NCBI GenBank assembly: GCA_046563655.1
Contig: CM102289.1
Location: 8,618,001-8,682,000 of the forward strand
Reading direction: 5' to 3'
Origin: Yuukianura sp. NJ FZ-2021
Taxonomy: Eukaryota
DNA: 64,000 bases
A program made the position numbers and the translations under genes. Of this stretch, positions 9,769 to 64,000 are shown piece after piece. The stretch's first letter is position 1, and every line of letters begins with the position of its first letter. The notes below the pieces were generated by a model, which was given only the letters and a program-made list of their open reading frames with translations, had not been told where the DNA came from and did not search any database.

Positions 9769-11153
9769 ATGACAAAGTCAACTGTCGAGACCTTTAGAGG
9801 TATGTTTACATTGATAAAGTTTAGTGGAACTTTTCCGATAAACTTTACGTATGCTATACCCAAACAAGAACATTGGACGACAACAAAATTTACACAAGAA
9901 CCAAAAAAAGTCTTTGCAGGAGTGGAATTTGGCGGCAGAAATTTTCAAATTTTTTCGTACATCGTTCCATTCTACATCACCCTGCGAGCTATCGCTGGTA
10001 CGGTTAGATGTACGCAGTATCTCTTGCTGGAAAAGGTGCAAAACGTGAGTTTAATTTTAAGTGCTATCCAATCTGCGTTAGTGCTGGGCACGCTCCTCGC
10101 GTTGCGAAAAAATGCGAAAGTTGTTTTGACATTTCTAAATGACTGGCATCGTTTTGAGCAACAATTGCTCACTTGGATCTCAGGTTAGTCGTTAAAGTTT
10201 TGCAAAGTATTTAGTTTTTGCTGTTTTTCGTTTAATCTGACTAGTTTATTTTTAATCTAGAGCGGGATATCAATTTTCATATTCCACGAATCGTCCCGCG
10301 TCAATTTTACATTTTGGAACTACTGGCCGGAGGCGGGGTTATACCAGTCATATTTTTTTCTCTACAAGAAAGTGACCTCGTCACAGCGCTACACTCCTAT
10401 TGGGTGCTTGGATTTCAAAATTTGGAACCATCAGTTGGGAAATCCATTGTCTACATTTTGACTTCCCTGGAAACAATACTTTTCATCGAATCGTTCTGGA
10501 TTACAATTGCTTTGGTTGATTTTATATTTCTCGCTTATCCATACAGTATCGAAAAATGCTTGAAATCATTGACACAGGTCAAAGTAAGCGCAGATCAACA
10601 AATTATGTCTGAATTTCGGGTATTTCCAAAAGTCCCAATTTCAGAAATTCAGAAACTCCAAACTGAAGTGAATGACCTCACTGAACGAATTGGGCTATAC
10701 TGGGATATAATTGACCTTACTGAATCTTTTAACAAAAATTTTTCAACTTTCATTTTGAGTTGGAGTGCTGCTAGTTTGCTTTGCCTTTGCTATTCTGTGT
10801 ATGGGTTAGTACGATTCTGGAAAGACGTGTCCACTAATTCCTGGATTGTTTGCGTCGCTTCTGCAGTGGCAATGGGAAGTAGATTTTTTGGTACAATGAT
10901 GTTGATGGGTAGAGTGCACAAAACTTCACTGGAAGTGCAAAAATCCTGGACCAGGGTACTCGTAAATAACAAATTTTATGGTAAAAACCAAATTTTCGGT
11001 AATCAGAATCAGAAACAACTTGAGAATTTTCTGCAGTTGTTCATTCCGGTGCAATTTACGAGTGGTCAGTTCTATGGAATTTCATCTTCGACTGTTCTCA
11101 CATTCCTCTCAGTTGTTGTCACAAATTGCATCGTTGTACTGCAAATATTTTAA
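9769..11153 (+). CDS. Gustatory receptor-like 7TM chemoreceptor, copy 5 (exons 9769-10183, 10261-11153; ~435 aa)
   Basis: Phase-1 intron TCAG|gttagt ... atctag|AGCGG. Motifs FLNDWHRFE, HSYWVLGFQNLEPS and VTNCIVVLQIF. Confidence 0.85.
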
Positions 11154-21200: not shown

Positions 21201-24200
21201 GTTTGTCAATCGTTTCAAAAACTTTACAATCAAAATACGCGCCATAAACTTCCTGCGAAAACAAAAAAGTTCATGCTAAAAGTTCGGAGTCATAAAAATT
21301 AGGAGCCCTTCGTCTCTTCGAGTCACGTTTTTGTAACTACAATTTTGAAATTAATACCCCCATATTTTGGCATGCATTTTACAACTTGCGAAATAGCACG
21401 AACCGCTAAATTTTTTTTTTCAAAAACGCAATGAAAATTATTGTCGAGTGATCTTTTCAACCACCAAATCTTCGCTGTTTTTTGTATTGGTGACCTCCAG
21501 GTCGCTGCCATTTTCATTTTTTTTCATTTTCATTTTCATTTTTCGCGTCAAGGGTACACCTAACCTTGGTATTTTCTAAACCTTTTAAAGCAACTGAAAA
21601 AATAGAGATCCCTGGGCGGACATTTTGGTACACTTAGGACGTCCTAACTTTAGGATAGGACCAAACTTAGGATCAGATAGGACAAAGCAGATTTTGGTAA
21701 AGATAGGATCCCTGAACCTCCTAAGTTTTAACACAGCTTATCGGATTTTAAAATATTGTTAAATAATTACTATTAATAAAAAATATTCCTATAAATAATT
21801 AAAAACTTATGATTAAATATAATTATTGTATTATATAGTATAGTATAGTACATTAATGTATTAATTAATGCATATTAAGTAATGTATATTGCATTAGTAC
21901 ATTATATATAAGTATAGTATATTGATTTGAAGTCAAACTTTCACATAAATGTACATTTACAGTATAAAATAATTGTTAGGATTGACTTAGGACGTGGAAA
22001 GACCGACCCTAAAGTTAGGAGGAATTTTGACAAAGATAGGAAATCCTATGTTTACCAAAATATTGGCGATCCTAAGTACCTATCTCCCATTGCCCAACTC
22101 CAGACTTAGGACAGTCCTAGGATTCGTATCAAAATACGGCAACTTAGGAAATCCTAGAGGAGTCCCATCTTTTCTCCTAAATAGTTAGGATCGGCCTGAC
22201 TTAGGACATCCTAACTTTCGTACCAAAATGTCAGCCCTGGAGCCTACTTTTCCAAGAAAAAGAAAATTTGGGTTAACAAAAGCGTAGCTCCGTTCCCCTC
22301 TGAATATAATTTTTGACATGACAAAATATTAACATTCTGCTCACTTCCTTGACTTTTTTTTGCAAAGACTAACTTTTTTGTATTACTTTTTTGACTCAAT
22401 AAACTTTTGTAGGAGAAGCGCAGAGAGATGAGCACGTAAAAGAAGTATGAAAAAATATAATAAAGTTGGTCCTTTTTGCACTTGCCATAAATAAACTTAT
22501 AAATCTTTTCGGCAGTGTCTTTTGACATTATCCTTCCTTTTCTACATCAGGAATACAGTGTCGCCTCAAACACAACTACAAGAAACACGGACTTTGACAT
22601 GGCAGAACGGCGTCGTCTTCTTGTCAAACCTTGTCACAATTTGTCATACTTTTGCACGCTGTTCTGAAGGCTAAGTACTCTGTGAGCTCACAATTTTATG
22701 AATAGGAAACAGGATAAATACGACAATGGACCACGGAGACGCAGACAAAGTTGTGCAAAAAAGTAAAAAAAAACAACTAAAAGTTGAAAAGGAAGGCATT
22801 AGTACAAAACAGCAGTCGAGCAAAACGTTGGAAAGGCAGGGTCACCAACATCAGAGTTTTTTATACCAAAATTTAAAATTTTGAATATAAAATTTTTTGT
22901 TTTCACATTTTTAAGAATTTTGTCTCCAAATATTGTCGGATAACAATCTTTAAATCTTTGAAGCACCTTTGAATCTGCAAAATTTGTCGAAAATTATAAA
23001 ATTTTTAACAGAAAGTGCCGACGGTAGTAAATCAAAGGCGGTAGGTTTTTGCGCGAGCTGTTTTTGATTCAATTTGAAATTTTTTTAAACCCATTTCCTT
23101 TACCCGTAAATTCATGTTTCCTGTTTCCTCAATGAGCAGGACAAAGCGGGGCTGGATGAGTTGTTTGATGACGAATTCCGGAGTTACGCTGGCTCTGTTG
23201 TCAGGAAACCTACAAAACAATGAAAAATTTTAGGTTCAGTTGCCAATTCATGTTTTATTTTACATTTCATGTCCGTCCAGGTCCAGGTACGGCTTATTGC
23301 AGTTCCTGTTTACTCATTCATAGAGTCTCCTTTGTTAGAACAACTGCATTTTGAATAGAATCGAGCCGTGGGTTCGATTCCCCCTGCCAGCACGGCTAGT
23401 CACCGTAACAAAAAAAATCGATGCGTGCACCACCTTTGCTTTTGGGCAATTAGAACATGTGCTGACAGTTTTCTCATGCAGGTAGAAGCCATATCAATGT
23501 TTTAAAAAAACATGCGCGGGAGTACAAACAAAACTTGGCAAATCAGCTGCGCAAATGTTGAATTTGGGGTAATTTAAAGTTAGCAAAACGAAAACACAAA
23601 AATTTGGACAAATTTTAAATCGGAGTTGACAAATTTTGAAGTGAAATTCGATGCTGCGCAAGCGTGAGCTTTTAGCTGTTCAAAGACACGCTGTAATTGG
23701 CTTCGTGCTTTTCAAACAATTTCAACTTTGTTTGAACATTTGCAAAAGATGTAAACAAGAAGATGAAAATATTGAACAAGAAAAGCACCGTGTTTTACTT
23801 TCAAGAAGGAACATAAAAGCAATAAGACGCCGCGTTTCAAAAGATGCGCGCTAGCTAGTCTTTGTGAATTTTTCAGCTTTTTTGATGATAAAAATTGTCT
23901 GGCAAAAGTTGTTTGATTAAAGGGCCTATTACATGAATTTTTTGTTTCAAAATAAACTCAACATGTTATTTTTTACTTTGTGCAATGAAAAATGAAAAAA
24001 ATTGACAATAAGTTGCTAGGTAATGGTGAATGTAAATTTTGATTGAAGTGTTTTTACAAGAAACATGAAAAGTTGTTGTGTGTTTAATGTTCCATGATCA
24101 AAAGTTTTACTTTTTAGCTTTAGCTTTTTATACGTCTAAAGTTTGGTTTAAAAATTATGTGAAGCAAAACTTACAACTAACAAAGTCATTCGTTTTGACA

Positions 24201-27200
24201 AGATTGACTCTTCAGATTGGACGTTAAAGACACACGCTTTCTCATTTTGCTTTACTTTTCATATTTGTTTGACAGCATCCGATTTTGCAACATCACAAAC
24301 ATCTTTTTACGAAACTCAAATACAAAATTTTACGCATTTTCCTCTACACTTTCCATAATTGGATCACACACTCAAATTACATTTCAATTTGAAAAGAGAG
24401 AAAAAAAAACGAAAGTGTCACAGGTTTAACAAGGAGCAACTGGCAGGTTATTCCACTTCAAAATTTTGTGAAATCATGCATAAAATTTTCCCAAGGGTGA
24501 CACATTTGTCATTTTAAAACCTACGCAATCAAATCCATAATTTTTCAAAAAAATATTTACACAAAAAACGCGTTTTTGCCATTTCCTCGTCAATTTGCTT
24601 TATTTGTTTTTTTTTATGGGAAAACGAGAATGCTTCGCGTTCGTACTGGGGCTTCGCCGCGTGCCACGTCAGTTGTGTTAATCACAAAGTCCACATTTTG
24701 TAAAATGGCAATACGTCATGTTTTTTTTTTCAAAATTTCGAAAAATGAAACTTGAAAAGCGTGTGTTTACCTTGACGAAATGTTGCGGAAATCCGGGTGG
24801 GAGAAAATGACTTCCTTGGTGGACTTCCTTCCACAGAGGAAGTTGTGTTTCGTAGGGGCGTATGGATTGTGCGTAGAAGCGTCACAGAACCACTTTACAT
24901 GCGGAAGGTGTGGAACTGACATAATGGAGCTAGTGATGTCATCGTTGAGGGCTGAAGTGGCACTGAAGACGCAGTTGCCACCGTTGCCACCGTGAGATCC
25001 AGGCTCCTTTGAACAGGATTCAGACCTGTAAATTAATGAAATTGTCAGCTCATCATCTGAAACTAATAGATCCGTAGATTTCCTAGGTTTTAGGAAACCG
25101 AATAAAACTTTTCTCTTCCATCATCTCCTTTCACTCATTCCCTCAAAAAAAAATTCTCATCATGTTTTTTTTTTCTTTCAAAAAAATGGTACGAGAGTAA
25201 TGAACTGTGATGAGGGGAGAAACGTAGCTCATCTGAACAGAAAAACGGAAAATTATTAGTTTTAGTCCAAAAAAAATCTGAAACTGAAACTTTGGCCTTC
25301 CAATTCCCCTACTAATGACCATGTAATTTCTTTTTTTCCGTTTCCATTACTCTCCGTTTGGGTTTCTAATTACTATAACTTCAAAGGGAAGGAGATGAGG
25401 GCGGGAAAAAACAGGGTGATTCAAAAAAGTAGTGGATCTGCCATAGTACATAATTTTACTTAAACTTTAGTTTACGTTTCATTTCTCATCAAAAACACAT
25501 CATCACCCAACGCCTTTTGCATGTCCTCTACAATTCCAAAAACAAATAGAAAGTTTTGCTCAAGTTGAGAGTTAGATGAACCTTGTTTTTGCTTTGTTAT
25601 TTTTAAGGATTTTCAAACTTTTTGCGAGCGCCAGAAAAAAATGGACTCCATAATGATCGCATAGATTTCCAAGAAAATGGGGTCAGAAGGTTAACAACTG
25701 ATTGTGACTAACAAAATTTCAAAAAAAAATCTAAATTATATGATGAGGTTAGATAAAACAAAAGAAAATTTTTTTGAAACAAAAATTTTAGGTTACATTT
25801 TTTGTCAGTAACAAGAACTACCAATTTTGTCTCAAGAACAAAAAAGAATGAGACGTAAAAAAACTAAAGTGTTTTTTTTTGTTTCCACGAAAATAGCGTC
25901 ATTTTGAATTGAATTGGCGTAGATTATGATTTTCGGTTGTGTTAGTCATTTTGAAGTGCAAAATTCTGCGAACTTAAGGATAACATTAGGGTTGCAAAAA
26001 TTTGAAAAAATTGGAATGATTTCATAAAATTGTATACTTACCATTCGCCCTTTAAGGGTACATTGGTACAGGCAGTGGGGGCCCTTGAGTCCCCTTTAGT
26101 ACCTCCCTTATGATACCCTGCTGGATAAATTGGATCATTTTCATAGCCTTTCTCTTCAAAAACTCCGTATCGAAACTTGGCCCATTCATGTACAATGGCT
26201 CGATCTAAAAACAAAAACAACATTGTTTTGAAATTTTGATTACATTATTATTACAATAATTTAATCTAAAATTTATAGAAACCGAAAACCTACCAACAAT
26301 TCGAAAAAACTCCAAAAAGTAGATCATTTTAAAATTGAACTTAATATAAAAAAGTTCATTTTGAGTATAAAATATGTAAAGTAGGCAGCATCGTAACTAT
26401 GGTATGGTTAGAGTCTAACGTTAAACTTAATGCCTGAAGATTTTCTTGACTTATGTGCCAAGCGGGAATATTTGAAAAACTTACTTTTTTTTGAAAATGG
26501 AAAAGAATAGGCTACTTTCGGGTGTTCCTTAAGGTAAGGATTAAGTGAAAGTAGGGAACAATTTCGCGGAAGAGCTTTCTCCAGTGCAGAATATCCTCCT
26601 ACACCTCCTACTTTGCATTATTCTCTATTCTACCAAGTTTTCTTTAATAACAAACCGTGCGAGCAAAATGGCCTCTGAGCACGAACTTTCTCTTTTCGAA
26701 AAAAAAATTACAAAAAAAAAAGTGAATGAAAGTAGTTCTCCACTTCTGACAATACTGGTCATAACGACCATTGAAAAAATAGATTAAGTTACGACTAACT
26801 TTCTTCTTTCTTCCGGAAAATCCCACTTTGGAACTTCCTGCAGCAGCTCATCTTCTGACAGACTTAGCATCCTACTTGTTTTTAAATTTCAAAGTTTGGC
26901 GCCCTTTTTTTTACTCAAGATGAACAATATGGTTATTTTTAACAAAAGTTAGAGGAAATGACCTTAAGTCAAGTCAAAAATAACAATAAGAGGGAGAAGC
27001 CTGTACTTTCTCTTTTCAAATTTTCATTTCCCTTGACAATATTCAAAAGTGTACGTCGACTACAATTTCCCATTTACCACTATACTCCATTCCGCCTCCA
27101 TTAAATCTTAAAGGCCAAGAGTAAAATCTAATGGGACTTGGGAAACTAGCCTAACTTAGCCTAACTCTGGAGCTTGACATACCTTTCTCCCGCCAAAACC

Positions 27201-30200
27201 TAACTTTTAGGACCAGGGTTGAATTTAATACAAACAAAACCATCACATTTTCTATTCCGTTACAAAGTTTTAAATGAGCCTCAGCTCTGGGCTTAAGTGT
27301 AGCATTAGGTCAGGTTTTATGCAGACAGGGGGGAGTACTTAGCCTGTCCTTAATATCCTCCTGTGCCTTAAAGTACACACAGCCAAGGCTCCCAACTTTA
27401 ATATCAAAGAGACACACTAACCTTAGCTCAAGCTAGGCCTACCTTTTCAAATTTTGAATTTTCCCGCTCCTTTCAGAGGGGGAGAACGTTTTTCATTTGG
27501 ATTTTTTGAAAATGAAAGTTCAAATGCCGCGGTGCTAAAAACCTGAAAATTTCATGCCACCGAAACAAGTCGTCGCGCGGGAAAGTTTTGAATTTGAGTC
27601 ATGTCAATTCCCCCCTCTCTGTAAAATGTTGAATCGTGCCAGCTCCAACTGTGAACCTGGATTGATTATGACAGTATCCATGGGATCCAGGATGCCTAAC
27701 ACAACCTTTGTAACCCTCATACTACACTGACATTGAACTTTGAAGAGCAACCCTAACTTGAAAACTTACCCTAACATTTCTCTATGTTTAACTTATGGTT
27801 CAGAGACGCACTTCCAGGAAGGGAGGGGAACAATTCAGAAAACTTCAATTGAAAATGTTGTTAATTTTTTTACCTGCAACAGACGCTGGGCCATGTCCTG
27901 TTTCATTGTACTGCATCAAGTAGTTGTAACCTACTGAAACGTAGTCTCCCGCCTCCCCACATCCGACTGACTGTTGTGTAAACGGTGCGTGACCAAAGAG
28001 CGGATGTTCCCCAACAATCCGGAACTGAGCCTTGGCTACCGTAGATCTGCTCGTAGGGGCCGCTGGTAAGTAGCGACCACACGCCCGAGAGTCCCACGTT
28101 GGCGGAAGAACAATGAGGACGCGATGAAAGTAGATTCTACGAGAAGTAGCTTCGTAGAGATACGAAGATGCGGATGAAAAGATCTCCTGAAAAGACAAAA
28201 AAGAGAGATTTAGGATCAGGTTTGCAGAAAAAATCGATTTCGGATTTTGCAGAAATTTTTTTTCATGTTCTTGTATAGAGAAACTTGCTTTCTCTTTTGG
28301 ATTTTGACCTCTTTCACCTCTTGTTCTGAATCAAATCTCATCACTCCTCATTCTTATAAATCAAAATTTGAGTTTTTTCCAGAAATCCTTTTTTGACTTT
28401 GATAGAGGAGCAGAATCCAACAGGAGTTTGAGAATCTCAGAGAAAGTTTTTTGTTACATTTTTACTACTTTGTGTTTTGAAAAAAAAAGACTTTCTCCGG
28501 GAAAGAAAAAGATTTTGGTAGATTTACTTTCCAAATGGAGGAAATAAGGAAGTTCAAAAAATGTCACATTAGAAGAGCAAAAAATTGCCCAAATGAAAAC
28601 GAATAACCTAATGTAGGCTATAAACCTAACAAGTTAGGTTAAGGTTAGGCTTCAGCAGTAGAATTGGTGGAGAAAGCATTAATTAATTATTATCCATAAC
28701 TGTCCTAATTCTTAACTTCCACCACCAGAGGTCGTTAATCATCCAAATGACTTTCAGTGGCAGCACTTTCACCAAACCACAACAACCTTGCTCCGCTGAA
28801 CTAACATGTTCTCACAACTTTGTGTGAACCACTTTCTACTTTTGCAACTATGTTAGTACCACAAAAGTTTTTGCAAACTAATGCTACCATGTACACTACT
28901 GTGTGTACTTTACGGTAGATAAGCAAAAAGCACTTCCTCTTACTTTTCCATTTATTACTTCCCGTGTCCCTAATCTAAAGCTCTACTTTCTAGTTTGTCC
29001 AAAAATTTAAAACGAAACTTCGGAAATGCGCGGGAGAACCGTTTAAATTTAAATTATGGAACATAAACATAGCATGGTACATTCCGTACTAAGCATGGTT
29101 AGGTGCACATATCTAAATTACAATCTCGTTGCTTAAATGATTCTTCAGAAACCACGCCTGCTTACAATCGGATGTAACAAGTTGACACTGACGAAGAACC
29201 AAAATTACAAAGCTCAACTTTTTCAAAAGGTGATTGAAAATTTTTTGCTTGTTCATAATTTTGAAGTTCTTTGAATGCTATAACCTTAGTTATGCTTCAC
29301 GGTTTAATCAATACAGTCGTAATTAAGATTTACCGCTAGAGGTGAATGAGATGCATATTTTAGGGATTCGCACAGCATGGGAGATTTTAAGACGAAAAGA
29401 TATGGCGGTGGGTTCGATCCAATCAATCCTTGTGCAAAAAATTTATCTTTGAATTTCAATAACAATCAAAGGAAAGTGTAAAATGATTTGCAAAAAAATT
29501 CATCAACACACCTTCATTTTCACAGCTAATCAACTTTTCACATCACATAACTAGAACTAATTATCCTTGGTCCAAATTATAATACGTACAAGGTGTAATT
29601 AAACATAACTTAAGTTCTAATTACCATATTAACATAAAATTCAAACGTATTAACAAAAAATTGATACATATTAAAGTGAAATTTACACATTTTAAACTGT
29701 TTTGCTAAATATAATAGCTGATTTTAAGTGTACAAAAACATTTTTATATTGAAGATTTAAATTGGAAATTTCTTGATACAAAAAAAAATTTTTTTGAACT
29801 TTTTTAAAACAAAAAATAAACTTTTTCGTTTTGTTTTTAATTTAGGGTTTGTACAAAGCTGGAAAAGGTGGATGATGCTCATTAAATTTACGTGAGTTAC
29901 AACTGTAATGTTTTTTATTACTAATTGTTCTGAAAACATACCCTAACTCTATACACATGTTTACATAATATAATATTATAACATATTTTTTTTCATATGG
30001 TAAAATACACACTGGAGAAGGGAGAGAAAGCGATACACCCTTGTTTTTTGAATTTGAAGCATCCTTTTTTGAAAGTATTTTTGAAGAGCATCTGAAAGCC
30101 TAGCATAACAGATTTCTAATAATTTCCAACCCTGTGTAACTCCATACTCCCAAAAACAGTTTTTGTTTTTCTTCTAATGCATTTCAATGACTGCCACATA

Positions 30201-42200: not shown

Positions 42201-45200
42201 TTTAAAACATCAATCTCCCTCGAGTCATACAACTTTTTAAAAAATTAAAAAAAAAATTTTTTTTTGAAAATCCTGGACATGGGCCCTTAAGGACCTTCCA
42301 TGCTTTGAAAGGCCTCCGCCTTAATTCCTATCTCCACAAAAACAAGTGTTAGAATGCAAGTATCGGGACGCCCTTAGAACTTGATCATGATCTGTAAATT
42401 GGATCTGGGCCCTTAAGGGGACTTGAAGGGACGAAAACGTAGGTTGAAGGGATACACATAGCCTTAAGTTGAAGGTGATGGTGGACGTGCAGATCAGTGT
42501 GGTTCATTGTTAGTTTCCAGTTGAGCAGAGAGTCATATATCTTTAGCACACTCTGTGACTTGGGCAGGGGACTTTGGGAAAAAGTCAAAGTGTCACCTTC
42601 CAAAAAGTTCCTATCTTGGTCTGACGTGATCTGGAAGATAAAATGCAACAATGTCCTGGAGGGAACTTTCAAAAATAATAGAAGAGGTTGCCGTGGTAAC
42701 AATGCGTCTGCAGAGATGATGGCTCAAGTCTTAACGAAATCTCATAAGCTTAAAGAGCCTCCCGGCCCCACCACCAAGCCAAGAATTCTAGATCTGGAAA
42801 TGATATCTTCTCACGAAGATTCAACGCTTTTGGATTTTTAAAGTTTGGACTCTCTTGAATTTCATAATTGTGCAAAGTCATAAGAATTAAGTTGAAAACC
42901 TCCACTTTATGAAGTAATATGTAAAGTACAATTTAAGAAAGTGGACTCATGTTACCTCCAGGCTCCGCAAGTTTCAATTACACTTTGTACAATTTGTAAA
43001 ATCTTAATTCTTGAAATTTTGAAGAATTTTTTTTTCCAAAAAACGAGCAATTAACATGTAACGTTGCAGGTTTACGGCCACTTGCTCAACAGAGACATAA
43101 ATTTGACAACTAAATTAACATTTACGTTTTTGAAACCTTATCTCTCGTGAACCTCAAGTTCACCTTAGGTAAATAACCTTAGTTTTCATGATTCTAAAGG
43201 CGCCAAAGTAGATCCAAGGCTCAGTGAAGTCAAGGGACCATGCACCCTTGAACTTTTTGAAATTTTGAATCCGAAAGAAACAATTTTCTCGTTTCGAAAC
43301 AACCTAGCACAACCTTGCTACTATTTCAAGGAGTACAGACGCGCTAGAACTTTTTGGCACACCGATCTGAAAGGATCTCTGATGACCTCGGTGCGATGAA
43401 TCTCAATTTCCTTTCCATAAGTCCCAGTGGACTCACTTTCTATTTCGAGTTAGACAAATATAACCTAACTTTAGCCTAGCCTAACTTTTACGTTGTATCT
43501 CAGCACTGTTTCTAAGAATCCAGAATAGCCTAACATAGTTCCTTTGCACCAACAAAACTATACTGCCAGTATTCACCTTCATTTCCAGTCCAACTATGAT
43601 TCTGGTGCGCTTGTTTTTAATAGAACAGGGGAATAGGATCGTGATGTGATCTAAAAGAAAACCGCCTCAACCCCATCCCATTGTCTTTCACTTTCCATTC
43701 AATTCACTTTCTCCTTTGTTTCAACCTACTTTCTTCCATTAGGTTCAGTATTTTCTAAAGGTGAAACACTTCCGCACAAAGGACAAACATCCGACGCAGA
43801 CGCCATTTTAAATTCAATTGTTTCCGGCACCGCATTTCGTGTCCTCTTGTCCTAATTTGAAATGAGACTCTAGTTTTCAAAATGTTCCCGCGTTTTCACG
43901 AATCCTCTGAATTGTCCACTACTAACCTATTCGCGTTCCAATTTAAATTTAGAAAATTTCTTGGTCCCCAGAGAATCATTAGACAGAATAAGTTAGGCCA
44001 AAGAGAAAGTCTCGGACAGGTGAATCGTAGATTAAGACACCAATGGCTTTCATTGGCTGAGGTCTACATGTTAGAGGTTGGTTGTTTACAAGCCAAGGGA
44101 CATCACATACATCTTCCCTGGGTACAACCTAACGTTAGCCTAACCTAAAACAACCTTAGCCTAACCTAAAATAACTTTAGACTAGCCTAACTTAAACTAT
44201 AGTTGCACAGCACGGTTTTCCAAAGTTACAAAGTTGTAATTTCTGGACAAAATTTTCTAGGAAATGGACTTTCTGGAGAAGAAACGCAGAGTTGCAGAGT
44301 TCTTTTAAAAGTTTGAATAGCCTAACATTTTAAGTTAACAAATTCCTAGGTTCAGGAAAGAGAGAAAGTCGTGGGTGAATTAATAGGAGAAAGTGGAGGC
44401 TAATGTACTACCTTTCGTGGCAAAAGAAAAGTTGTTTCTGTAACTGAATTCAAAAGGATTAATTTCATTTTCACGAAACTAGAAGAAGCCTCATGCGCTT
44501 TCATATTGCAGCAAGGGCGACTTTCACCATAACTTTCCCTGAGAAATTGGAATTTTTCTTGTCAAGAACCTCTCTCCTAACAGAAAAAAAAAAGTCTTGA
44601 ATTTTTGGCGGAGTTGTGCCCCGCCTTATTCAGCCCCACCGCCGCCTCCTCCATCCGACTCTGCGGTGGGGCATATTTATCAGGCCACGAAAGTTAAGTT
44701 TCGCTTTCTCTTTCCCGCCTTCCACCGCATCACAATTACCCAACATAAATTCAGTCTAAGACTACTTCCTTATGGGTGCTTTTCTTATTTTTTTGAAAAC
44801 TAACATTTCCATAGAGAGCTGAGCTTCGAGCTTTTGAAGCTTTCCTTTTTTTGAAAATAGGAAGCGCTTGAAGGTTTTCCTTAGTGGAGACCATTAAAAA
44901 TGGATGGAAGGTAGCAATGTTAGTTTCTGGAGGGAAGGAGGACAGGTAAGCAGATCTCATTCAAAATGTATGACATGGAATACAAAAAATAATGTGCAGT
45001 TTTGGGCTCTGTGGCGCACTGCTCTCTAAGGCTTTTTGGTTCTACTGAGCAATAATTATGGGAAACTTCTTCCATTTCTTTCCGCAATTCCTATTCAGGA
45101 AACGAAATTATTTAAAATGGAGTCGTAAACAGTACAAACCGTTTCGAAAAAAAAAGTTTTCCAAGAAACTGCGTTTTTTCTTACTTTTTTTTTGAAATAG

Positions 45201-52100: not shown

Positions 52101-55100
52101 ATGAGGTTAGGTTCACAGGACGTAGTTTTAGCTTGTCAAAGGTAAAAGTTCAACGGATTGGGAACTTTTTTGATAAAAAGTGAAAAAGCGATTTAGAAAC
52201 CCTAACCTTTTGATTTTAAAACTTTTTTTTTTTCAAATCCATCCTGCACTTGACAGTTCTCCACTTATGGAAACTAAACACACCAAAAGGTCATCCTCAA
52301 AGCCCACTTCAACACTCAACCCAACAAACTTAAATTAACTTTTCTCATTTCAAACAGTTTTTCAACAAAAAAAAGTTTTTAGTACTCGGTTTTTCCTCTA
52401 TTTGGAAAAAGTACTTGATCTTCATCTTCAAAAAGCCCATGCAGAGTTCAAAAAAGCTTCTCCAGATGGAAATCAACTTGAAAAAGTTGATTTAAAAACT
52501 AGTTCTCAAAATCCAACTTTTTTGTATGGGTCAGAATGCAATTTGACTTTTTAACTTTGAAGCCCACCAGCACGCGTACTTTTGTAATTGTAATTAGTAT
52601 GATCAGATTCACCGCAGAAGATGATCACTTTCATCAAAAATTTGCCTTCAAGCACAATTTATCCAAAAGGAATTTCATTTTCAACTTTCCGTTTTACAAA
52701 CAACAGGAAAGTTTATGCGCTTGAAAATTAATCAAAAATTTGATTATTTGCAGAATCCATATAAAACTTTTAGTCCAAGCGGTTTTGATTGGAGGAAAGC
52801 TTCTGGCGGGAAGCATATTTTATTCAAATTTTCGTCCCGTCGCTAACTTTGACGCTTAAATATTTCGAAAACGCTTTTCATACACCTATTGTTCTCCCGG
52901 CCAAAGTCTCCAGCGATTTGGCTTTTGTTCTGTTAGAATTAAATTGTGACGACCAAAAGTGAAAGGAGAAAGGGCGGGAGTTGCTGGTTTTTAGAATTTT
53001 AGAATAGTAGAGTAGTAGATCTTCTAAAGAATTTTCAAAATTTTCCCGCGCAGTAACTCAAAAGGTCCGTTGAATTTAATATGACCTGATTTTAAAGCTT
53101 TACTTTCAAGAATTATGGGTTTGACGTCCATTGAACCTTGGTTTTGCAGCGTCCTACGCTGCTATTCCAGCGTCACCGCTTTTCGGATGGAATTTTGTTC
53201 TAATTAGATTTCAGAAAGCTCAAAGCCTTTAGGTTTCATTTTAAAATACATTTTCAACTTAAGGTAAAGTCTAAAACCAAGAGAGTTAGTTCAAAAACAG
53301 TGAGAGTAGTGTAAATCGCTGCCAAAAGTAGCAGCGATTTTCAAATTTCAGCGTTCAGATGAGTTTTGCCAGGAAATTAGAGCATCTTTGTGTAAAATGA
53401 ATAACACGGAGACTTTGGAACATCATCATCCTCGTTTTCTTTCATTTTCCTAAGCACTGTTTGGCGTGATCACAAAACTTTTTTGGAAAAACAAAATGTG
53501 ACTTTTTTTCTAGTTAAACAAGAAATCCTATCTCGTTATACTAACAATCTTTTATCAAGCACTGAACTCTCCTCCTTCTACACCAAACCACAAGTTAAGT
53601 TCTTAGTTTCACAAAAAAGTTAGGGTTTAGAATGAAAAAGTTTAGGTTAGGGTGAAAAGCGCATTATCTAAATCCACGTTACAAATTATAAGATTGTTTC
53701 GATGAAGATGAAGATGATCATGAGGATTTCGTGAGACATGAGAGCCTTAAGTCCGCATCTTTCTGTTCTCAACTCGACACCTTCCAGACACACAAGATTT
53801 CCTGGAAACCTCCAAAACCTTTAATTATCTTTTTTCGAAAAAACGAAAAAAGTAAAACAAACAGACAATGTGCGTTTCACGTTTCCGGGAAAATTCGAAT
53901 CAAGCGTTTTGTTATAGTTACTCCCTCCAAGATTCAGTTCTGGAACATAGTCACCCCTTCTACAGCGTTACACATAGTTACTCCCTCCACTAACTTCAGT
54001 CTATTGTGTAACACTGCACTGCTGGAACTAAACTCATTAAAATCAAATAATAGCGCACTCTACTTTCTTTCTTTTTTGAAAAACCCGCTTTTTTCGTTCT
54101 TTTAAAGAATTTAAGTGGAATTGGATCGAACTCTACTGACAATTTGATCCAATTCAAAAAAAAAATGAAGACGAAGAAATTGGACCAGTTTTTTAAGACG
54201 ATCTGGAACCCTGTGTTCCACTTTCCTCCAAAATTATGGACCAATTTGCATCAAATTTTGAACGAAAAAAAATGTTACAACTTTGCCATTCCACTTTCAT
54301 CGTTCGGAAGAAGAAAATAAGGTCTTATTGTTATTATTGAATCTGCAAATGGAGTTGTGCGCCGCGCCTGACAAGAACTGAAAACCGAGTTACACAAAAT
54401 TGAAGCGCTGAAACGCTGGAAAGATGCTGGAACGCTGGAAAAACGGAAAAGAAAGCTAAATTGTGCATAGCTTTCACTATGTGTGTCTTCTTGCTACCAA
54501 AACTAATAATACAGACGTTGCTTTTTTTCAAAAACTGAAAGACTTTGGATCTGTCAGGGCTTAGACTTTTACATTACTTGAGGGGAAATTTTCAAAAAAA
54601 AAAATACAAAAAATGTTAAAAAGAGAAAGTTTTTTAAAAGCTTTGATTTTTGGATAAATGCTTACGCACACAGACTAAAAACATGAAAATTTGAAACAAG
54701 AATTGAGTTTATTTCGGCTTTAAAATTTGGGAAAAGATAAAAGAGAGAAAGTTTTCAAAGCCGTTTTGTGTTACATAGCCTAACTTTTTCATGCTATGTT
54801 TTAGATCGTTTGTTGTGCATAATTAATTTTTAGGAACGACCATTACATCAACTTGGTTCAAATGTATTGTAAAAACAAACTTTGTACCAAAAAGTGTACA
54901 AAGTTTAGAAAATTCCTCAAGTAGAAAATGTGAACTGGGCTTAAGTTCCAGCACTAAAGTTAAGAAACTGGTAAATTGGTAAGGGCGGTTAGGTTTAAAA
55001 GCTTAAATTTTAAAATGGACCAAAGCCTTTATCTTAACCCAAGGGAGATTAACTGTAGCCTTTACCTTTTAAAATACTTTCTAAACCCTCTTTTTTCAAA

Positions 55101-58089: not shown

Positions 58090-61000
58090 TTAAGAGTAGA
58101 AAGTCAAAACGGACGTTTGATTTCCACGGACGAAGAGGAACGGCGGCATGTCTGCAGTCAGAATCTCCAACCAAGCCATGTAAAGCTCCGCTGAAACGAC
58201 ATTGCGGCGTGGCATCGGTAGCGTCCTGTGATTCAATTCAAAATTTTGTGTTAAAAATCAAAATTTCATTCAAAATTTTGTATTAAAAATAAAAATTTCA
58301 GTTTTTGACGCGTCAAAATCAATGGAACAGTCAAGTTTGGAACAAAAATTATCTGGGTTCATTCGAGTTTTGAGGCCTGCAATTATGTTTGAATGAATTG
58401 CTAGGTAATGTATAGACTTAAGATTCAAATTTCGAAAAGTTAAGCCCAATTTGCGTTGTGCTGTCAAAATAAGTATTGATTTTGAATTTTGAGTCATACA
58501 TAACAACAAGCGTCGATTCCTTGGAGTACTCCAGCAGCAGTTCACGGAGTCTCAAATGGCGATTAGTTTTGTCCTTCATGACAAGGAGCTCAGATGGGTT
58601 AATCCTTGGTGCTAACATTGTTATTTACATAGCCATTATAAAACTAACTACTTAGAAAACAACTTTGGAAGATTGAAAAATCAATACAAATTTTGGTCAA
58701 GGTCAAAGGTCATACCATTTGTGTCGTCTCGTTTCATTCCAGAGAGAATTCTCTCAAAGTAGGCCTTGGTTTGTTCCATAGCTGGTCTGTTAATGTCCGG
58801 AATGATTTTTAGATCCGAAAAGTCAATTCGAAACTTCGACAAAAGTCCGGCCATCCTAAGAGAAAAGTTGAAAATTGAAAATTATTTTTCAAAATTGGAT
58901 TAAAACAACTTTTTCTAACTTTTGTTTTTAAAACTTTTTGTAATTTCATCAAACCTGCGATGTTCAGAATCAAATTCGTCTTTCCGATTGGCCAGAGCAA
59001 AAACTCGGAGCTTGCATGCAGCCCAGTTGCTTCTTGTGTTGATTATGTAAGGCAGTAGGAGCGTCAGTCCACCGTCTATCAAAATTTTGAAAGATCAATT
59101 TTTTGAAAAAAAAATTGAAAATTGAAAATTTGAATAAGCTTACCATCATAGAGCCAGTAGACATCAATGGTACCCTGCTTGTGTTTCTGTCGAAACAGTG
59201 AAATTTTTTCCATAATCTGCGGACTGATTTCTCCGCCATCGATGCTTCTTCAAAAAACAGAAATAAACAATTCATAATTTTGAATCATCACAATCGAGCA
59301 ATAATTTTTGAAACTGGGAATTTTCAAAATTTTGAACACCGCCTACTTGAAATTCATGTCCATAGTTGACGCCTGTGACGTAACTTTGGTTCCATGTGGA
59401 TCTTCCGTAGTTGCATGATCATTGCTTTCTGAAATTCAGTTTTTCATTTTATAAAATTTTGAAAAAATTTCTAATCCCTTCAAACTCACCCCTAACTAGT
59501 TTCCAAATTCCAGAATTCAGAGACTTTGATAATTCTGAAGTCACTTCCAAAAGCAAGCATGAAGCAACAAAATTTTTATAAACTATAAGCTTAACTTGTA
59601 ACTTCTAAAGCAACTTGCAAATTATTTGCATATTTTCAAATTAAAGTCGTTTTTGAATTTGTAGTGTCAATGCTAAAAATCAATTTTCAAGAAAATTTTC
59701 AGAAGCATGCCATTATTCTAAAGGAATTGCTACGAAGCCCATTGCCCAGAATAAATTCCCGAGAAACCATTGCTCCAAAAATAAACAGTTCAGCATACAG
59801 GGAAGAAACTAACTAAAGCGTAAGGAATGCACGTTTTTCGAAACTTATTTTGTGGAAATTTTGCAAAAGTTTTATTTTAGAAAAGGATTAATTCTATTCT
59901 CCGCATTGTATTGTTTCCTTTTCCAAGTTTCAGTTTTTCTAATTTTAAACTTTTCCGAAAACCAATTTCAGGGTTTTGTTTCTTACTCAGAAAATTTCCA
60001 TTGTTCTAAAAAGAGAAGTAGAATTTTTAAAATTTAATCCCTTAAAGGTGACTCCTTTTGCTGCCTATAAAACTACCGGATTTTTGTTTCCTCGGCAGTC
60101 AGTCTAGTACTGACCGAAGACCTCTTCGGATGGTCCGCAATTGCTCATGTCAACAATTGTGTCCAACTCATGCTCTGCAGTGGACCATGGAGATGTTCCG
60201 CAGTAGTTAATGCAAATTATCACTGGGAATCATCTTCATGTTTAAACTGTCAGAAATTCAACACGGACTTCTCCAATTGCACTAAAATTAGTAACTACTT
60301 GCGTCGGTAGTCAAGCTACAAGCATGTCACCGGGTATTTAGTTGCTCATATTTTTTGCAAAAATGTCGCCGCGTCAACGTCTCCAACTCTTCTCCAAGGA
60401 CGAACATCAACACGGATTTTCCAATTGCACTAAAATTAGTAACTACTTGCGTCGGTAGTCATGCGAATGTCACCGGGTATTTAGTTGCTAATGTTTTTGC
60501 AAAAATGTCGCCACATCAACATCCCCACATCGTTTCTGGAGGAATCTCAAGCACAGGATCTTCAATTGCATTAGAATTAGCAACTACTTGCGTCGGTAGT
60601 CATGCAAATGTCACCGGGTACTTAGTTGCTAATGTTTTTGCAAAAATGTCGCCGCAATTCGGAAGAAAACACCAACGAAAACTAAAAATCGCACAACTTC
60701 AGATTTTTCTGCAGCAGAACATGAAAATGTTCCGCAGTTGTTAAAATTTTAACTAACACTGGGAATAATTTTCATTTTTGAGCTGTCAGTATTTCGTCGT
60801 TTCAAAATGGGGATTCATTCGGAGCAATACATTCGGAACAATTCATTCGCAGCAATGGCGTATTACAGAAAATTTTGTTCAAAAATGATTTGGTTACCTT
60901 GAGACACGTCACAGAATGATTGATCGGACAGATTTTTTGGCAGAGAAGTGTTGGACGTACTTTTACTTTTTGAAAGATCACTGTAGTTGGATGCTGGAGA

Positions 61001-64000
61001 GAAAGTTTCTTTTCCAAATGTTATTTGCTTGCTCATGTCAAGGCCACCGGAAACCCGCAGAATACATACAGACAAATGCAAATCCAGAGATTTACTACAG
61101 AGATGAACAAAGATTAGTTAAAAACTGCAGTATTTAAACCCCGCGGAATTCAAATTTTTCAAAATTTAAGTTTTACTGTAGAACTGTGAAGTATTGGTTG
61201 AGGTCACCGGGGTCACTGGTTGCCCAATCCTCTTTGAATCCCATCATAAGAATGTTTGGTCTTAATTTTCCGACTCCATAAGCTTGGAGCAGTGCTTTTG
61301 CGCCTTCTTCAAAATCCATGTCATCGATCACACAGTAAAAAGCTTTAATTTTTTGGCCAGTGAACCACGCCTGAGCCTTTTCTTGCAAAGATGAGCGTTG
61401 ACGATTAGTCAAACTAGACTGAATTTGTAAAAAAAACAACAAGTTTTTCAAAAAAATTCTTGAAATAATTCAAGATTAGCTAAACATATGATTTCCCATA
61501 AGCTAACTTAACTGACCTAGCATATCATTTGTATAACCTAATGCCAGACATATTTTACCTTAACAATGTGCCCGCAAACAACCAGAGAAAGTTGTTTGGT
61601 GATGAGATATGCAAAATCGACGAGTGACGGGCGCGTGGCAGGCAGGCCAGACAAAACAAGAATTTGCGGGCGGTAGTTTTTGCAGTGCTCATGGACGTTG
61701 TTCAGTTGCTGAACGGAGGTCAGAGCAGTCTTGTACGTCTGCGCCTGCGTCGAGGATCCCCAGTTTACATCTAAAGTGAGCAATTAAGTTAGTTAGGTCA
61801 TGCAATTGTTGATTAAAATTTTCAAATTTTGAAATTTTAAGTTTTGAAATTTGGATACTATGTTAGTGTGACTCACCGGGTTTGTGGAAAGTGACGACCA
61901 TGTAGAGGAATAGGATGACCCCAAAGGTTAACAACGCCGTCACCCAGGAAATGAGGAACATAACTGTCATTTTTAAGAGAAATTGCAGTGAATTAAAGCT
62001 TATTTAATATGTTGTACTTGGCAAATTACCTGCCACACAGAGAACGGCTCCTACCAGACTCAACCACATATTAAAATACTGCCAAATTTAAAACAAAAAC
62101 AACTTTTAACATTTCATTGTTGTTTAAAAAGAGAATAAGTTTGAAATTCATTGTGCTACCTTGAACGTAGGTCGCCATCCGACTGGTTTGGCCAGACTGA
62201 CATGAAAGGTACTGAAGTTTACGAGGGCATAGGCCGCCAACTACCATCACAAATCACAAAATTTACGTTTTTTTAAAGTATCACTTTCAACAACAAATTT
62301 TGAACTAAAAACTGTAACTCACGAAAAAGTTGGATATCAAAGGAGCTATCAAATTTAGTTCCGCTAGAAAAAAAAATACAAAGCATTTAAATACATGGTC
62401 TGACAAGTTTCAGTTCCCAATGCTTGCATCTCTTCTGACTTACCAATAAGAATAAATCCTGTAATAAAAGTCGAAATGAATTAATTCTCAACATGAGTTT
62501 TCAAAAAATCAATTTTTTTTTAAAAATGGGTTTACCTAAAGCAATGATAAATGTCAAAATGTATCCTCGAACTGGTTCATTGTTTTTTCCATAACCTTTT
62601 CCAAATCCTTCAATGTACGGATACAATTTGTCGTTGCAAAGTGCTTGAAACACTTTTGGTGCCGACACGAATGACGCAAGCGCAGAACTCAACGTAGCAG
62701 CAAAGCATCCTGTTTCAAAATTTCCAAAGAATCAGCCATTTTCAAAAGAAGTGTAAGTTTTTTGGAAACAAAGTAATCACAGCATGTAAATGTTGTACAG
62801 TGGAGTCTCTAAATAAGGGAAAAAATCACTATTGGAGGATTGGTAGTAGGAGCCTCCCCCAGTAAGATTTCTGGTAAACGGTCAGTTTCTGCGCTGTTGC
62901 GCAGTTTCTGCGCTGTTGCGCACAAACTGCGCAACAAACTGCGCAAGAGGCGGAGCTCCTGTCCCTTATTTAGAGAATTCACTGTAGTGCCAATAATGGA
63001 TTTGACTTTACCCAAGTAAATAAGTAGTCCCCAAGCCTAGTAATTAAAAATGTCAATAATTATAGGCTTATGTTACACAACCATAAAATAACATACTAAT
63101 AGCAATGTAATAACATTGCATAATAGCATGATATTGACACTGAACGTCAAAAACCTACAGAAACGAGTTCCATAACTTGGAAGTTGTTCATGAGCCCCCA
63201 CTCGGTACACAAGTTCTCTTGTGTTCCGCTTGTTTCGTTGTAGGTGTAGCAGTTCCGGAATTCCGCCATCGTCGTGTCCCAGTCTTCTGGATCAGTCAAA
63301 TTTGAAGGCCCAATGGCATCTCTTACAACTGGAACAAAATTTACACAAAATTACAAAGTTAATCAATGAAACTTAATTAAAGTAATTAAAAATCAAAATA
63401 TTTGGATTTTGGAACCTGTAGCTCCAGCAATTAGAGCAAAGGCCAAGTAGCTTGCAGTGGTTACAAAAATAGCAAGAAGCGTCCCTTTTGGGATAGAGTA
63501 CTGCGGATCTTCCAAATTTCCTGAAATGTTTGCACTAAAAAACGAAACAAAAGTTGAAGTAAGTATATAAAATTTTGAAACTTTGCACTCTTTTTTGAAA
63601 CGCAAACTCACCCGGCCAGGATTCCAGTAGCTGCTGGAAAGAAAATTGAAAAGACAGAAAAGAAATTTTGTTCTGTGCCTTCTGTGAATCTGTAGTCAGA
63701 TGCCAAGTTTTCTACAAAAACAGAGCCTGAAATTGGGGGTTTAAAAAATTAGTTTTAAAAAAGTTGACAATTTTGAAAAAAAAAGGACAAAATTTATTGG
63801 AAACTTACTATTGTAGCCAACAAAGCCTCTACTCAGTTCGTCAGTACTAATTGGTCCAATGAAACTTCCAATCACAAAATCAACCTACCACAACAATTGT
63901 TTTAGTTAAATATTTAAATTTTTGAATTTTGAATTCGAATTTTGGTTTTTTTAATAGTTTAGAATAAAAAAAAAACTTAAATTTACCATAGCTGCTACTA
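58090..64000 (-). CDS. NKCC: SLC12 cation-chloride cotransporter, Na-K-2Cl (NKCC/Ncc69-like); 5' part lies outside the window
   Basis: Exons >64000-63987, 63884-63809, 63726-63612, 63534-63416, 63328-63159, 63036-63012, 62709-62536, 62458-62444, 62363-62323, 62240-62160, 62078-62030, 61963-61877, 61770-61559, 61418-61177, 61094-60898, 59428-59347, 59247-59144, 59075-58955, 58855-58716, 58611-58500, 58225-58090. Motifs [97 protein letters not shown]. Confidence 0.95.
60066..60104 (+). promoter_or_regulatory. Candidate TATA + Initiator core promoter for the miRNA cluster
   Basis: TATAAAA at 60066-60072 followed 31-35 nt later by GCAGTCAGTC (arthropod Inr consensus TCAGTY), ~75 nt upstream of the first hairpin. 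Confidence 0.5.
60175..60253 (+). ncRNA. Mir-3: pre-miRNA-like hairpin, miR-3/miR-309 family (predicted 3p UCACUGGGAAUCAUCUUCAUGU, 60220-60241)
   Basis: CATGGAGATGTTCCGCAGT pairs with ACTGGGAATCATCTTCATG, lower stem CTGCAG/CTGTCAG. Seed CACUGGG is that of miR-3/309/318. Confidence 0.75.
60277..60360 (+). ncRNA. Mir-36: pre-miRNA-like hairpin, miR-36 family (predicted 3p UCACCGGGUAUUUAGUUGCUCA, 60327-60348)
   Basis: 5' arm TAGTAACTACTTGCGTCGGT pairs with 3' arm ACCGGGTATTTAGTTGCT, TTGCA/TGCAA basal stem. The 5' end UCACCGGGU matches nematode miR-35/36. Confidence 0.75.
60425..60502 (+). ncRNA. Mir-36: pre-miRNA-like hairpin, miR-36 family (predicted 3p UCACCGGGUAUUUAGUUGCUAA, 60470-60491)
   Basis: ATTAGTAACTA..CGGT.GTCAT-loop-ATGTCACCG..TAGTTGCTAAT. 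Paralog of the adjacent hairpins. Confidence 0.78.
60566..60643 (+). ncRNA. Mir-36: pre-miRNA-like hairpin, miR-36 family (predicted 3p UCACCGGGUACUUAGUUGCUAA, 60611-60632)
   Basis: Perfect 11-bp ATTAGCAACTA/TAGTTGCTAAT stem continuing to CGGT/ACCG and CAT/ATG around a GCAA loop. Confidence 0.78.
60709..60789 (+). ncRNA. Mir-3: pre-miRNA-like hairpin, second miR-3/miR-309 family paralog (predicted 3p ACACUGGGAAUAAUUUUCAUUU, from ~60756)
   Basis: ATGAAAATGTTCCGCAGT pairs with ACTGGGAATAATTTTCAT. Same CTGCAG/CTGTCAG base as 60175-60253, with structure-preserving substitutions. Confidence 0.7.
62798..62984. mobile_element. Tc1/mariner (pogo-like) MITE in an NKCC intron
   Basis: 23-bp TIR CAGTGGAGTCTCTAAATAAGGGA versus CAGTGAATTCTCTAAATAAGGGA (reverse complement of right end). 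TA on both flanks. Internal TGCGCA-rich repeats. Confidence 0.75.

Follow-up and report, generated by a model that had tools for sequence, protein, structure and literature searches.

An antisense array of five hairpins in an NKCC intron is a probable arthropod microRNA cluster with mir-3791- and mir-309-type seeds

Does the array of five fold-backs that lies within an intron of an NKCC-type transporter gene encode microRNAs and, if so, from which strand and of which families? We addressed this question in a 64-kb window (the whole stretch of DNA analysed, 64,000 nucleotides), where the array occupies positions 60174-60789 of the + strand, all inside ~620 nt. Along this strand the seeds run CACTGGG, three times TCACCGGG, then CACTGGG again, and each opens the 3' arm of its hairpin (the hairpins are called u1 to u5 in this order). 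With a probability of about 0.8, we consider the locus to be a + strand polycistronic microRNA cluster, transcribed independently of its SLC12/NKCC host and antisense to it. This reading is based on the observed hairpins and their geometry, on seed and structure conservation between paralogues, on strand asymmetry and on a family-specific Rfam signal.

The host intron (59429-60897, minus strand) belongs to an SLC12 gene of the NKCC type. Using insect and unnamed NKCC proteins as tblastn queries, the flanking exons were located at 61117-60896 and 59249-59145, and no homologous exon was detectable between them with the same queries. The Pfam SLC12 and AA_permease models match the exons neighbouring the intron, whose boundaries (GT and TTTCAG-type) were placed from the sequence itself rather than from transcript data. 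Exon mapping and the Pfam SLC12 matches thus bear out the antisense placement in an NKCC intron proposed by the initial annotation. All the named NKCC matches came from insects, and the CLCA-like matches of the window from springtails. A 7tm_7 chemoreceptor array is also present in the window; when a chemoreceptor exon was used as protein query, no match was obtained at E ≤ 1e-3. By sequence, the source lineage is assigned to the arthropods and not to the nematodes, springtails being its nearest named relatives.

Folding recovered all five + strand fold-backs, each with a single stem, where they had been proposed, with z-scores of -4.1 to -5.0, and for each of them 0 of 200 shuffles folded as stably. 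The two outer hairpins are of the CACTGGG type (mir-309/3/2733-like). The first, u1 (60174-60254; MFE -34.0 kcal/mol, z -5.0), has predicted arms at 60187-60209 (5p) and 60220-60241 (3p), separated by 10 nt, with 19 of 22 3p bases paired. The last, u5 (60709-60789; MFE -27.7, z -4.8), has predicted arms at 60721-60743 (5p) and 60756-60777 (3p), with 20 of 22 3p bases paired; its predicted 3p starts with A, and a start at the U located 2 nt upstream (60754) is an alternative possibility. The three inner hairpins carry TCACCGGG and are mir-3791/Mir-36-like. They lie at 60277-60360 (u2; MFE -27.1, z -4.1; predicted 3p 60327-60348, 17/22 bases paired), 60425-60502 (u3; MFE -29.2, z -4.7; 5p 60438-60461, 3p 60470-60491) and 60566-60643 (u4; MFE -30.9, z -4.8; 5p 60579-60602, 3p 60611-60632), and both u3 and u4 have 19/22 3p bases paired. 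The seeds start at 60220/60221, 60327, 60470, 60611 and 60756/60757; in all five hairpins they follow the terminal loop immediately, as had been described. When 761 nt were folded together (z -7.4), all five stems were retained in the MFE structure; the centroid retained the core stems and lost parts of the u2 and u4 lower stems.

A canonical animal microRNA gene (MirGeneDB-style) forms an imperfect hairpin with a ~35-bp stem, a terminal loop and at least 16 duplex bases paired. The five hairpins have this structure, with 17-20 of the 22 predicted 3p bases paired, inter-arm distances of 8-13 nt and MFEI values of 0.69-0.88. In u1-u3 the first paired base of the basal stem precedes the predicted 5p start by 13 nt; basal pairing reaches 22 nt in u4 and 19 nt in u5, via flank pairing in the longer fold. 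Processing of pri-miRNAs also involves a CNNC motif ~17 nt downstream of the Drosha site. With offsets computed by script from assumed 22-nt 3p ends, this motif was found on the + strand at +18 after the predicted 3p end in u1 (60259-60262), u3 (60509-60512), u4 (60650-60653) and u5 (60795-60798), and at +19 in u2 (60367-60370). A CNNC starting at +16 to +18 is thus present in four of the five units, compared with 9.9% of the + strand positions of the window.

The small RNAs could in principle derive from the other strand. Transcription of the NKCC pre-mRNA, or of both strands, would then yield sense-intronic small RNAs with unrelated seeds, and the host intron ensures minus-strand transcription wherever NKCC is expressed. 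On the minus strand, u1 and u5 fold almost as stably as on the + strand (-28.5 and -27.2 kcal/mol; z -4.8 and -5.7). However, the folds of u2-u4 are much weaker there (-19.7, -16.7 and -22.6 kcal/mol; z -1.4, -1.6 and -3.1), because the two or three G-U/U-G pairs that each of these units holds within its predicted 3p become mismatches on that strand. Moreover, the + strand is where the CNNC motifs, the conserved seeds and all the family matches described below are found. Together, these observations make a minus-strand origin very unlikely and argue for the + strand cluster.

Part of the array is a tandem repeat, for which a period of ~145 nt had been claimed. The repeat is real: Tandem Repeats Finder measured a period of 141, with 2.7 copies and 85% matches (60258-60653, + strand, score 525). 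It corresponds to a tandem duplication yielding u2-u4, in agreement with the local amplification that had been suggested. The period is 141 nt between u3 and u4 and 148 nt between u2 and u3; the pieces detected by self-blast are 85-86% identical, the three units are 85-94% identical to each other, and no other copies of the repeat unit exist elsewhere in the 64-kb window.

Tandem copies with an inverted-repeat structure would also be expected from a transposon- or satellite-derived (MITE-like) element or an endo-siRNA hairpin locus, and the sole protein match of the frame reading through the array is an unnamed repetitive product of 2305 aa with a 76-aa period. However, repetition inflates the score of this match, in which 39 residues are aligned at 28% identity. 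Further copies are absent from the 64 kb, and neither terminal repeats nor target-site duplications were seen. In addition, the mismatches and bulges of the stems are typical of pri-miRNAs, unlike long perfect duplexes. An origin of this kind is therefore highly improbable.

The through-reading frame itself (149 codons, 60295-60744, + strand) might encode a repeat protein, since it is open across u2-u5 and three of the five differences between u3 and u4 are synonymous. The 141-nt period of u3-u4 equals 47 codons, and the open frame was therefore simply copied; the 148-nt period of u2-u3 is not a multiple of 3, and u2 is therefore read in another frame. Pfam showed nothing below E 0.18, and among 1.84 billion representatives only the repeat-inflated match was obtained. 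A protein product of the 149-aa frame was thus rejected, its probability being close to nil.

A further alternative is a neutral tandem repeat of the intron, with units that are self-complementary by chance and remain unprocessed, and with coincidental seed matches. In its favour, u2-u4 are young duplicates, and their similarity therefore says little about selection. Moreover, u2 is already decaying: it is the most degraded copy, with a 5-nt insertion in the loop, a 1-nt insertion and both of the broken pairs found among u2-u4. The pairing-preserving change announced for the miR-36-type stems is confirmed, since the U-G to C-G difference was found, together with one A-U to G-U, but u2 has lost two pairs. 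The older paralogues u1 and u5, which are 77% identical, speak against neutrality. Among their 29 pairs, three are doubly changed and kept, two are singly changed and kept, and none is broken, one end gap aside, so that pairing-preserving differences (5/29 pairs changed, still paired) are more numerous than originally claimed. In these two units, 3p positions 2-11 form an identical 10-nt seed block but the 5p arms begin with different bases, consistent with the 3p arm serving as guide. The spacers diverge, as had been noted, and the hairpins are more conserved: u3 and u4 are identical at 73/78 positions of the hairpin, compared with 12/24 in the 5' flank; in the 3' spacer, 17/23 aligned positions are identical and a further 32 columns are gaps. 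The one-base-different seeds of the two hairpin types occupy equal structural positions, and the CNNC spacing is common to three independent lineages. The TCACCGGG motif occurs five times in the window versus 0.51 expected; three occurrences are in the hairpins, and the remaining two are in antisense exon sequence and form no hairpin. CACTGGGAAT occurs exactly twice in the window, in u1 and u5.

The Rfam searches bear on both the neutral repeat and the family assignment. Over the 64 kb (both strands, 4227 families), the best two matches were those of u3 and u4 to mir-2733 (37.2 bits, window-wide E 4.6e-4, and 35.5 bits, window-wide E 1.4e-3). In a 661-base search, u1 matched mir-2733 (25.0 bits, E 0.014) and u2 matched mir-2733 (25.6 bits) and mir-36 (19.1 bits); mir-36 scores ranged from 19.1 to 22.9 bits across u2-u4, the highest being that of u3. 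The top four families for u5, in a 111-base search, were mir-36_2 (23.4 bits), mir-2733 (19.8), mir-3836 (17.1) and mir-3 (16.8), aligned seed-to-seed. Ten of the 11 matches at E ≤ 10 in the 661-base search were to mir-2733, mir-36, mir-36_2, mir-3836 or mir-3 on the + strand, and no family was matched on the minus strand. No match in the window reached its Rfam gathering score (72.9 bits for mir-2733, 48 for mir-36, 46 for mir-36_2 and 54 for mir-3), a point in favour of a neutral repeat. However, each of u1-u5 matches only families with a CAC[C/U]GGG seed, in register, and this confinement to one seed superfamily speaks against a neutral repeat. Such a repeat is thus unlikely, though less so than the alternatives above, and the microRNA cluster remains the preferred reading.

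The predicted 3' arm products of u2-u4 have at positions 2-8 CACCGGG, the seed of Mir-36/mir-3791, and those of u1 and u5 have CACUGGG, the seed of Mir-3/mir-309/mir-2733. The family assignment of the initial annotation is thus supported in kind, by seed type and in-register Rfam matches, with all scores below the gathering thresholds. Its comparison with nematode miR-36 holds for the seed type but points to a misleading organism: the window is from an arthropod, and the CACCGGG hairpins therefore have their direct counterpart in arthropod mir-3791. We take the latter to belong to the MirGeneDB MIR-36 family, together with worm mir-35-42 (RF00685) and mir-36_2 (RF04298). The likeness to mir-36 (RF00685) consists of a 3' arm that opens with CACCGGG and of the weak, sub-threshold matches in register. 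Honey-bee miR-3791 starts with CACCGGGTA, as seen from a primer in Table 1 of PMC7206646, which confirms the family seed; u2-u4 share CACCGGGTA with this primer, but beyond base ~10 they are unrelated to the bee sequence. Multiple copies of Mir-36 are reported for other arthropods in bioRxiv 10.64898/2026.09.16.752239.

With 3' arms that open with CACUGGG, u1 and u5 resemble the mir-309/mir-3/mir-318 family; u5 differs from this family and its relatives by the initial A of its predicted 3p. The predicted u1 3p equals bmo-miR-2733e-1 of Bombyx, as listed in Table 2 of PMC2824724, over its first 11 bases. The mir-2733 model (RF04275) matches u1-u5 in register, but its best matches are CACCGGG units and not CACUGGG ones, far below 72.9 bits. 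The 17.1-bit match of u5 is to Tribolium mir-3836 (RF03817), a multi-copy relative of mir-309/mir-3/mir-318. Local multi-copy amplification is described in the text of PMC4691753 as typical of the mir-309, mir-2733 and mir-3836 families. No exact match of the predicted mature sequences was found in the literature, nor any report of a miR-309 microRNA in Collembola. A metagenome scan for the two blocks that are conserved in both u1 and u5 returned only two loci, both chance intergenic hairpins, on protein-dense contigs of higher GC judged bacterial from sequence alone.

As a polycistronic array combining mir-3/309-type and mir-3791-type members, the locus resembles the early-embryonic clusters of insects (Drosophila mir-309~6, Tribolium mir-9d~3791, hymenopteran mir-3791). 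According to passages of PMC4691753 and PMC4238352, insect clusters combining mir-3791 with mir-309 family members are already known, and the novelty of the present cluster is therefore lower than first claimed. In the Hymenoptera cluster presented in PMC4238352, two mir-3-type members also stand at opposite ends. The insect clusters differ in that they also contain mir-9/4, mir-279/286 and K-box (mir-5/6/2944) members, which the present cluster lacks: none of the corresponding Rfam families was found at E ≤ 1 in the 64 kb. Exact 7-mers of partner seeds (K-box, Brd-box, miR-279, miR-8) were searched on both strands, and their + strand matches are not in hairpins; among the 11 + strand matches folded (seven partner-type seeds and four further CAC[C/U]GGG), none was miRNA-like. 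The cluster considered in PMC3923130 lies in an aconitase intron, whereas the present one is antisense in an NKCC intron.

A primary + strand transcript may start at a candidate core promoter at 60066-60104, ~75 nt upstream of u1, comprising TATAAAA (60066-60072; TATAAA at 60066) and an initiator-like CAGT/TCAGTC (60096-60104; TCAGT at 60099). Neither AATAAA nor ATTAAA occurs on the + strand before 61812, ~1 kb downstream of the cluster. The transcript would fold into five canonical pri-miRNA hairpins, which Drosha/Pasha would cut ~13 nt above each basal junction; Dicer-1 would then release ~22-nt duplexes, with the 3' arm as the probable guide strand. In this way u2-u4 would give three near-identical microRNAs with the CACCGGG seed, of arthropod mir-3791 (MirGeneDB Mir-36) type, and u1 and u5 two with the CACUGGG seed, of mir-309/3/2733 type.

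The mir-3/309 family is known in insects for the clearance of maternal mRNAs, and TAGteam/Zelda sites are expected upstream of an early-embryonic cluster of the insect mir-309~6 type. No CAGGTAG-type (TAGteam-like) heptamer was found within 58900-60900. By analogy with the insect clusters, expression in eggs or early embryos, or in the ovary as initially proposed, and a role in maternal mRNA clearance may be supposed. A bias towards eggs or embryos is described for the clusters of ants and flies in PMC4238352, and the Tribolium clusters containing these families are, according to PMC4691753, the most strongly expressed microRNAs of the early embryo.

If confirmed, the locus would bring microRNAs of the mir-3791 and mir-309 types to a lineage for which published microRNA annotation is very scarce; the microRNA account of one springtail genome paper (PMC5644144) counts 20 loci in 14 families without naming the families. 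Such a candidate cluster would be overlooked by protein-centred annotation, and curated Rfam thresholds miss it too. The neighbouring seed types, one compensated base pair apart, bear on whether mir-3/309 descends from the protostome-wide Mir-36 and on the way in which the composite mir-309 cluster of insects came together. PMC4238352, where it treats this question, regards mir-309/3, arthropod mir-3791 and worm mir-36-42 as one ancient family, and notes that an intermediate in the step-by-step assembly of the mir-309~6 cluster is lacking. A possible but doubtful reading is that the present locus represents a stage preceding the insect mir-309 cluster, namely an array of the Mir-36 superfamily only, in an early-branching hexapod, in which CACUGGG arose in situ, through a compensated change in a CACCGGG hairpin. 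If true, it would supply that intermediate and give direct paralogue evidence for the one-family proposal of that paper.

At 3p position 5, where the two seed types differ, u1 and u5 have a U:A pair and u2-u4 a C:G pair. In five-way MAFFT alignments the two types fell out of register, and these alignments were hence not used; the register was taken from the 3p position and the shared Rfam model. A covariance model built from u2-u4 recovered its own three units, found u1 at only 17.2 bits (E 0.21) and did not find u5 on the + strand, giving no significant link between the two hairpin types. In local alignments, the score of u5-u4 was reached by 68 of 2000 shuffles, in a non-collinear alignment, and those of u1-u2, u5-u3 and u5-u2 by 274, 452 and 704 of 2000, respectively. 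The score of u1-u3 was reached by 57 of 2000 shuffles, and u1 and u4 share a collinear apical segment, including the loop, whose score was reached by nine of 2000. Among these comparisons, only those of u1 with u3 and u4 suggest a kinship of the two types.

Folding of the plus strand between 60174 and 60789 gave five separate single-stem fold-backs, designated u1 (60174-60254, minimum free energy -34.0 kcal/mol), u2 (60277-60360, -27.1 kcal/mol), u3 (60425-60502, -29.2 kcal/mol), u4 (60566-60643, -30.9 kcal/mol) and u5 (60709-60789, -27.7 kcal/mol). Their z-scores ranged from -4.1 to -5.0 and, for every unit, 0 of 200 dinucleotide shuffles were as low, bearing out the five plus-strand fold-backs of the initial annotation. 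In a 761-nt fold of the whole cluster (z -7.4), all five stems were present in the minimum-energy structure; the centroid kept their cores, the lower stems being partly lost in u2 and u4. When the whole window was scanned in 90-nt sliding folds (8522 windows, mean -13.7, sd 5.2), the windows of u1, u3 and u4 were found within the 60 most stable listed. Tandem Repeats Finder reported u2-u4 as a 141-nt period (2.7 copies); u1 and u5, 77% identical over 88 nt, form a more diverged pair.

A 149-codon open frame (60295-60744, plus strand) spans u2-u5. Among 1.84 billion representatives it had one match, an unnamed product of 2305 aa that repeats internally every 76 aa and aligns at 28% identity over 39 residues per repeat. 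This product could be the translation of a tandem repeat in another genome. The frame was rejected as coding, since the repeat period of 47 codons accounts for its openness and no credible homologue was found.

The motif TCACCGGG was found at 5 sites in the window (0.51 expected). Three of these lie at the start of the 3' arms of u2-u4 and the remaining two in antisense exon sequence, outside any hairpin. CACTGGGAAT occurs exactly twice in the window, in u1 and u5. The order is therefore CACTGGG, three times CACCGGG, CACTGGG, as initially annotated. Geometry was measured with an assumed 22-nt product of the 3' arm (3p), beginning one base 5' of each seed. In the five units, 17-20 of the 22 predicted 3p bases were paired, and the arms were separated by 8-13 nt. 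The basal stem of u1-u3 has its first paired base 13 nt upstream of the predicted start of the 5' arm product (5p), about 13 nt being the distance that Drosha is thought to measure; basal pairing reaches 22 nt in u4 and 19 nt in u5, via flank pairing in a longer fold. CNNC, a pri-miRNA processing motif, begins 18 nt past the predicted 3p end in u1, u3, u4 and u5, on the same 22-nt assumption, and at 19 nt in u2, a unit carrying a 1-nt insertion. The background for CNNC at +16 to +18 is 9.9% of plus-strand positions in the window. As u1, u5 and the u2-u4 group represent three independent lineages, the shared spacing is unlikely to be due to chance.

Differences between paralogs had been described as preserving pairing, and such differences were confirmed in both hairpin types. 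For u1 and u5, RNAalifold predicted a consensus of 29 pairs, with three pairs altered on both sides, two on one side and, one end gap aside, none broken. The two units agree at all of 3p positions 2-11 but diverge where the 5p arm begins, in its first bases, a pattern that would be expected for a 3p guide strand. Among the paired positions of u2-u4, no double changes were found. Two substitutions on one side only leave the pairing intact (U-G to C-G and A-U to G-U), and two pairs are broken, each of them in u2. As u2 also carries a loop insertion, it may be a decaying copy. u3 and u4 agree at 73 of 78 positions within the hairpin but at 12 of 24 within the 5' flank; judged by sequence, hairpins are better conserved than spacers.

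The two hairpin types differ at 3p position 5, which in a common register is U:A in u1 and u5 and C:G in u2-u4; the seed difference is thus compensated in the 5p arm. A collinear local alignment of u1 and u4 extends over the apical stem and loop, its score being matched by 9 of 2000 shuffles (57 of 2000 for u1-u3, 274 of 2000 for u1-u2). Alignments of u5 with u2, u3 and u4 were not significant (2000 shuffles), and a covariance model built from u2-u4 recovered neither u1 nor u5 significantly. On these comparisons, the CACUGGG and CACCGGG hairpins may be in-place paralogs.

Nowhere in the window was the gathering score of an Rfam family reached. When matches over all 64 kb were instead reported by E-value, the top two matches of any family, both below gathering score, were u3 (37.2 bits, E 4.6e-4) and u4 (35.5 bits, E 1.4e-3) to mir-2733, and no other microRNA family appeared at E<=1. 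In a search of the 661-base cluster, 10 of the 11 matches at E<=10 were plus-strand mir-2733, mir-36, mir-36_2, mir-3836 or mir-3. The top four matches of u5 alone came from mir-2733, mir-36_2, mir-3836 and mir-3, seed on seed in each. For the CACCGGG units the best-scoring model was one with a CACUGGG seed (mir-2733), and for u5, itself of CACUGGG type, it was one of the Mir-36 clan.

Honey-bee miR-3791 starts with CACCGGGTA (PMC7206646, Table 1), and in silkworm the UCACUGGG family miR-2733 has multiple copies, among them miR-2733e-1, which is identical to the predicted u1 3p over the first 11 bases (PMC2824724, Table 2). According to PMC4238352, mir-309, mir-3, arthropod mir-3791 and worm mir-36-42 are one ancient family, the hymenopteran cluster has two mir-3-type genes at opposite ends, and expression of the ant cluster is egg-biased. 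In Tribolium, mir-3791/mir-309-family clusters are described as the early-embryo microRNAs with strongest expression (PMC4691753). MIR-36 has been dated to protostomes and MIR-309 to pancrustaceans (PMC5121899), and a table in PMC6828783 gives both mir-3791 and mir-309 for Daphnia magna. Given these published families and clusters, this kind of locus is already known; the initial annotation was right on anatomy and family type but overstated novelty. The present locus differs from known insect clusters in lineage, in lying antisense within an NKCC intron and in lacking the other three seed families (mir-9/4, mir-279/286 and K-box). One cross-species scan returned two matches, both bacterial chance hairpins. 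We predict, at about four chances in five, that u1-u5 form a genuine Mir-36-superfamily microRNA cluster.

Each of u2-u4 has two or three G-U wobbles within its predicted 3p and, in keeping with this, forms a much less stable fold when read from the minus strand (-16.7 to -22.6 kcal/mol, z -1.4 to -3.1). Folding of u1 and u5 is about equal on both strands, so these units may give minus-strand or bidirectional products. About 75 nt upstream of u1, TATAAAA (60066-60072) is followed by CAGT/TCAGTC (60096-60104), a candidate core promoter at consensus TATA-to-initiator spacing. TAGteam-type heptamers were absent from 58900-60900, and the first downstream plus-strand AATAAA or ATTAAA is at 61812.

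The host of the cluster is a minus-strand SLC12 cation-chloride cotransporter gene, with exons matching Pfam SLC12 and AA_permease. A search with an 83-aa exon gave 26 protein matches at E<=0.001; those with names are insect bumetanide-sensitive Na-K-Cl cotransporters (46-57% identity). By tblastn, host exons were placed at 61117-60896 and 59249-59145 with no homologous exon between them, consistent with the antisense intronic position originally proposed. The next NKCC intron contains a GC-rich near-perfect palindrome (62850-62960), in which a ~19-nt unit occurs in duplicate together with its complement. The palindrome is present once in the window and folds to about -62 kcal/mol whichever strand is taken (z -5.0 and -6.6); its sole Rfam signal was a weak mir-49 match (E 4.2).

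Chemoreceptor genes of the 7tm_7 (gustatory-receptor) type, each with two exons and at least five in number, lie in tandem at 372-11153 (plus strand). A near-length search with one exon recovered no relatives at E<=1e-3, which suggests a lineage-specific expansion. At ~12300-28300 (minus strand) lies a CLCA-like gene (calcium-activated chloride channel regulator), one exon of which had only three matches, all springtail (Folsomia 42%, Orchesella 39%, Allacma 37%). Judged by this array and these springtail-only matches, the window is not nematode-derived DNA. Elsewhere in the window, an isolated single-stem hairpin was seen at 52885-52985 (plus strand, -36.2 kcal/mol, z -3.7); it occurs once in the window and matched no Rfam family at E<=1. 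A GC-rich structured stretch with two adjacent stems lies at 44590-44705 (minus strand, -44.8 kcal/mol, z -3.5).
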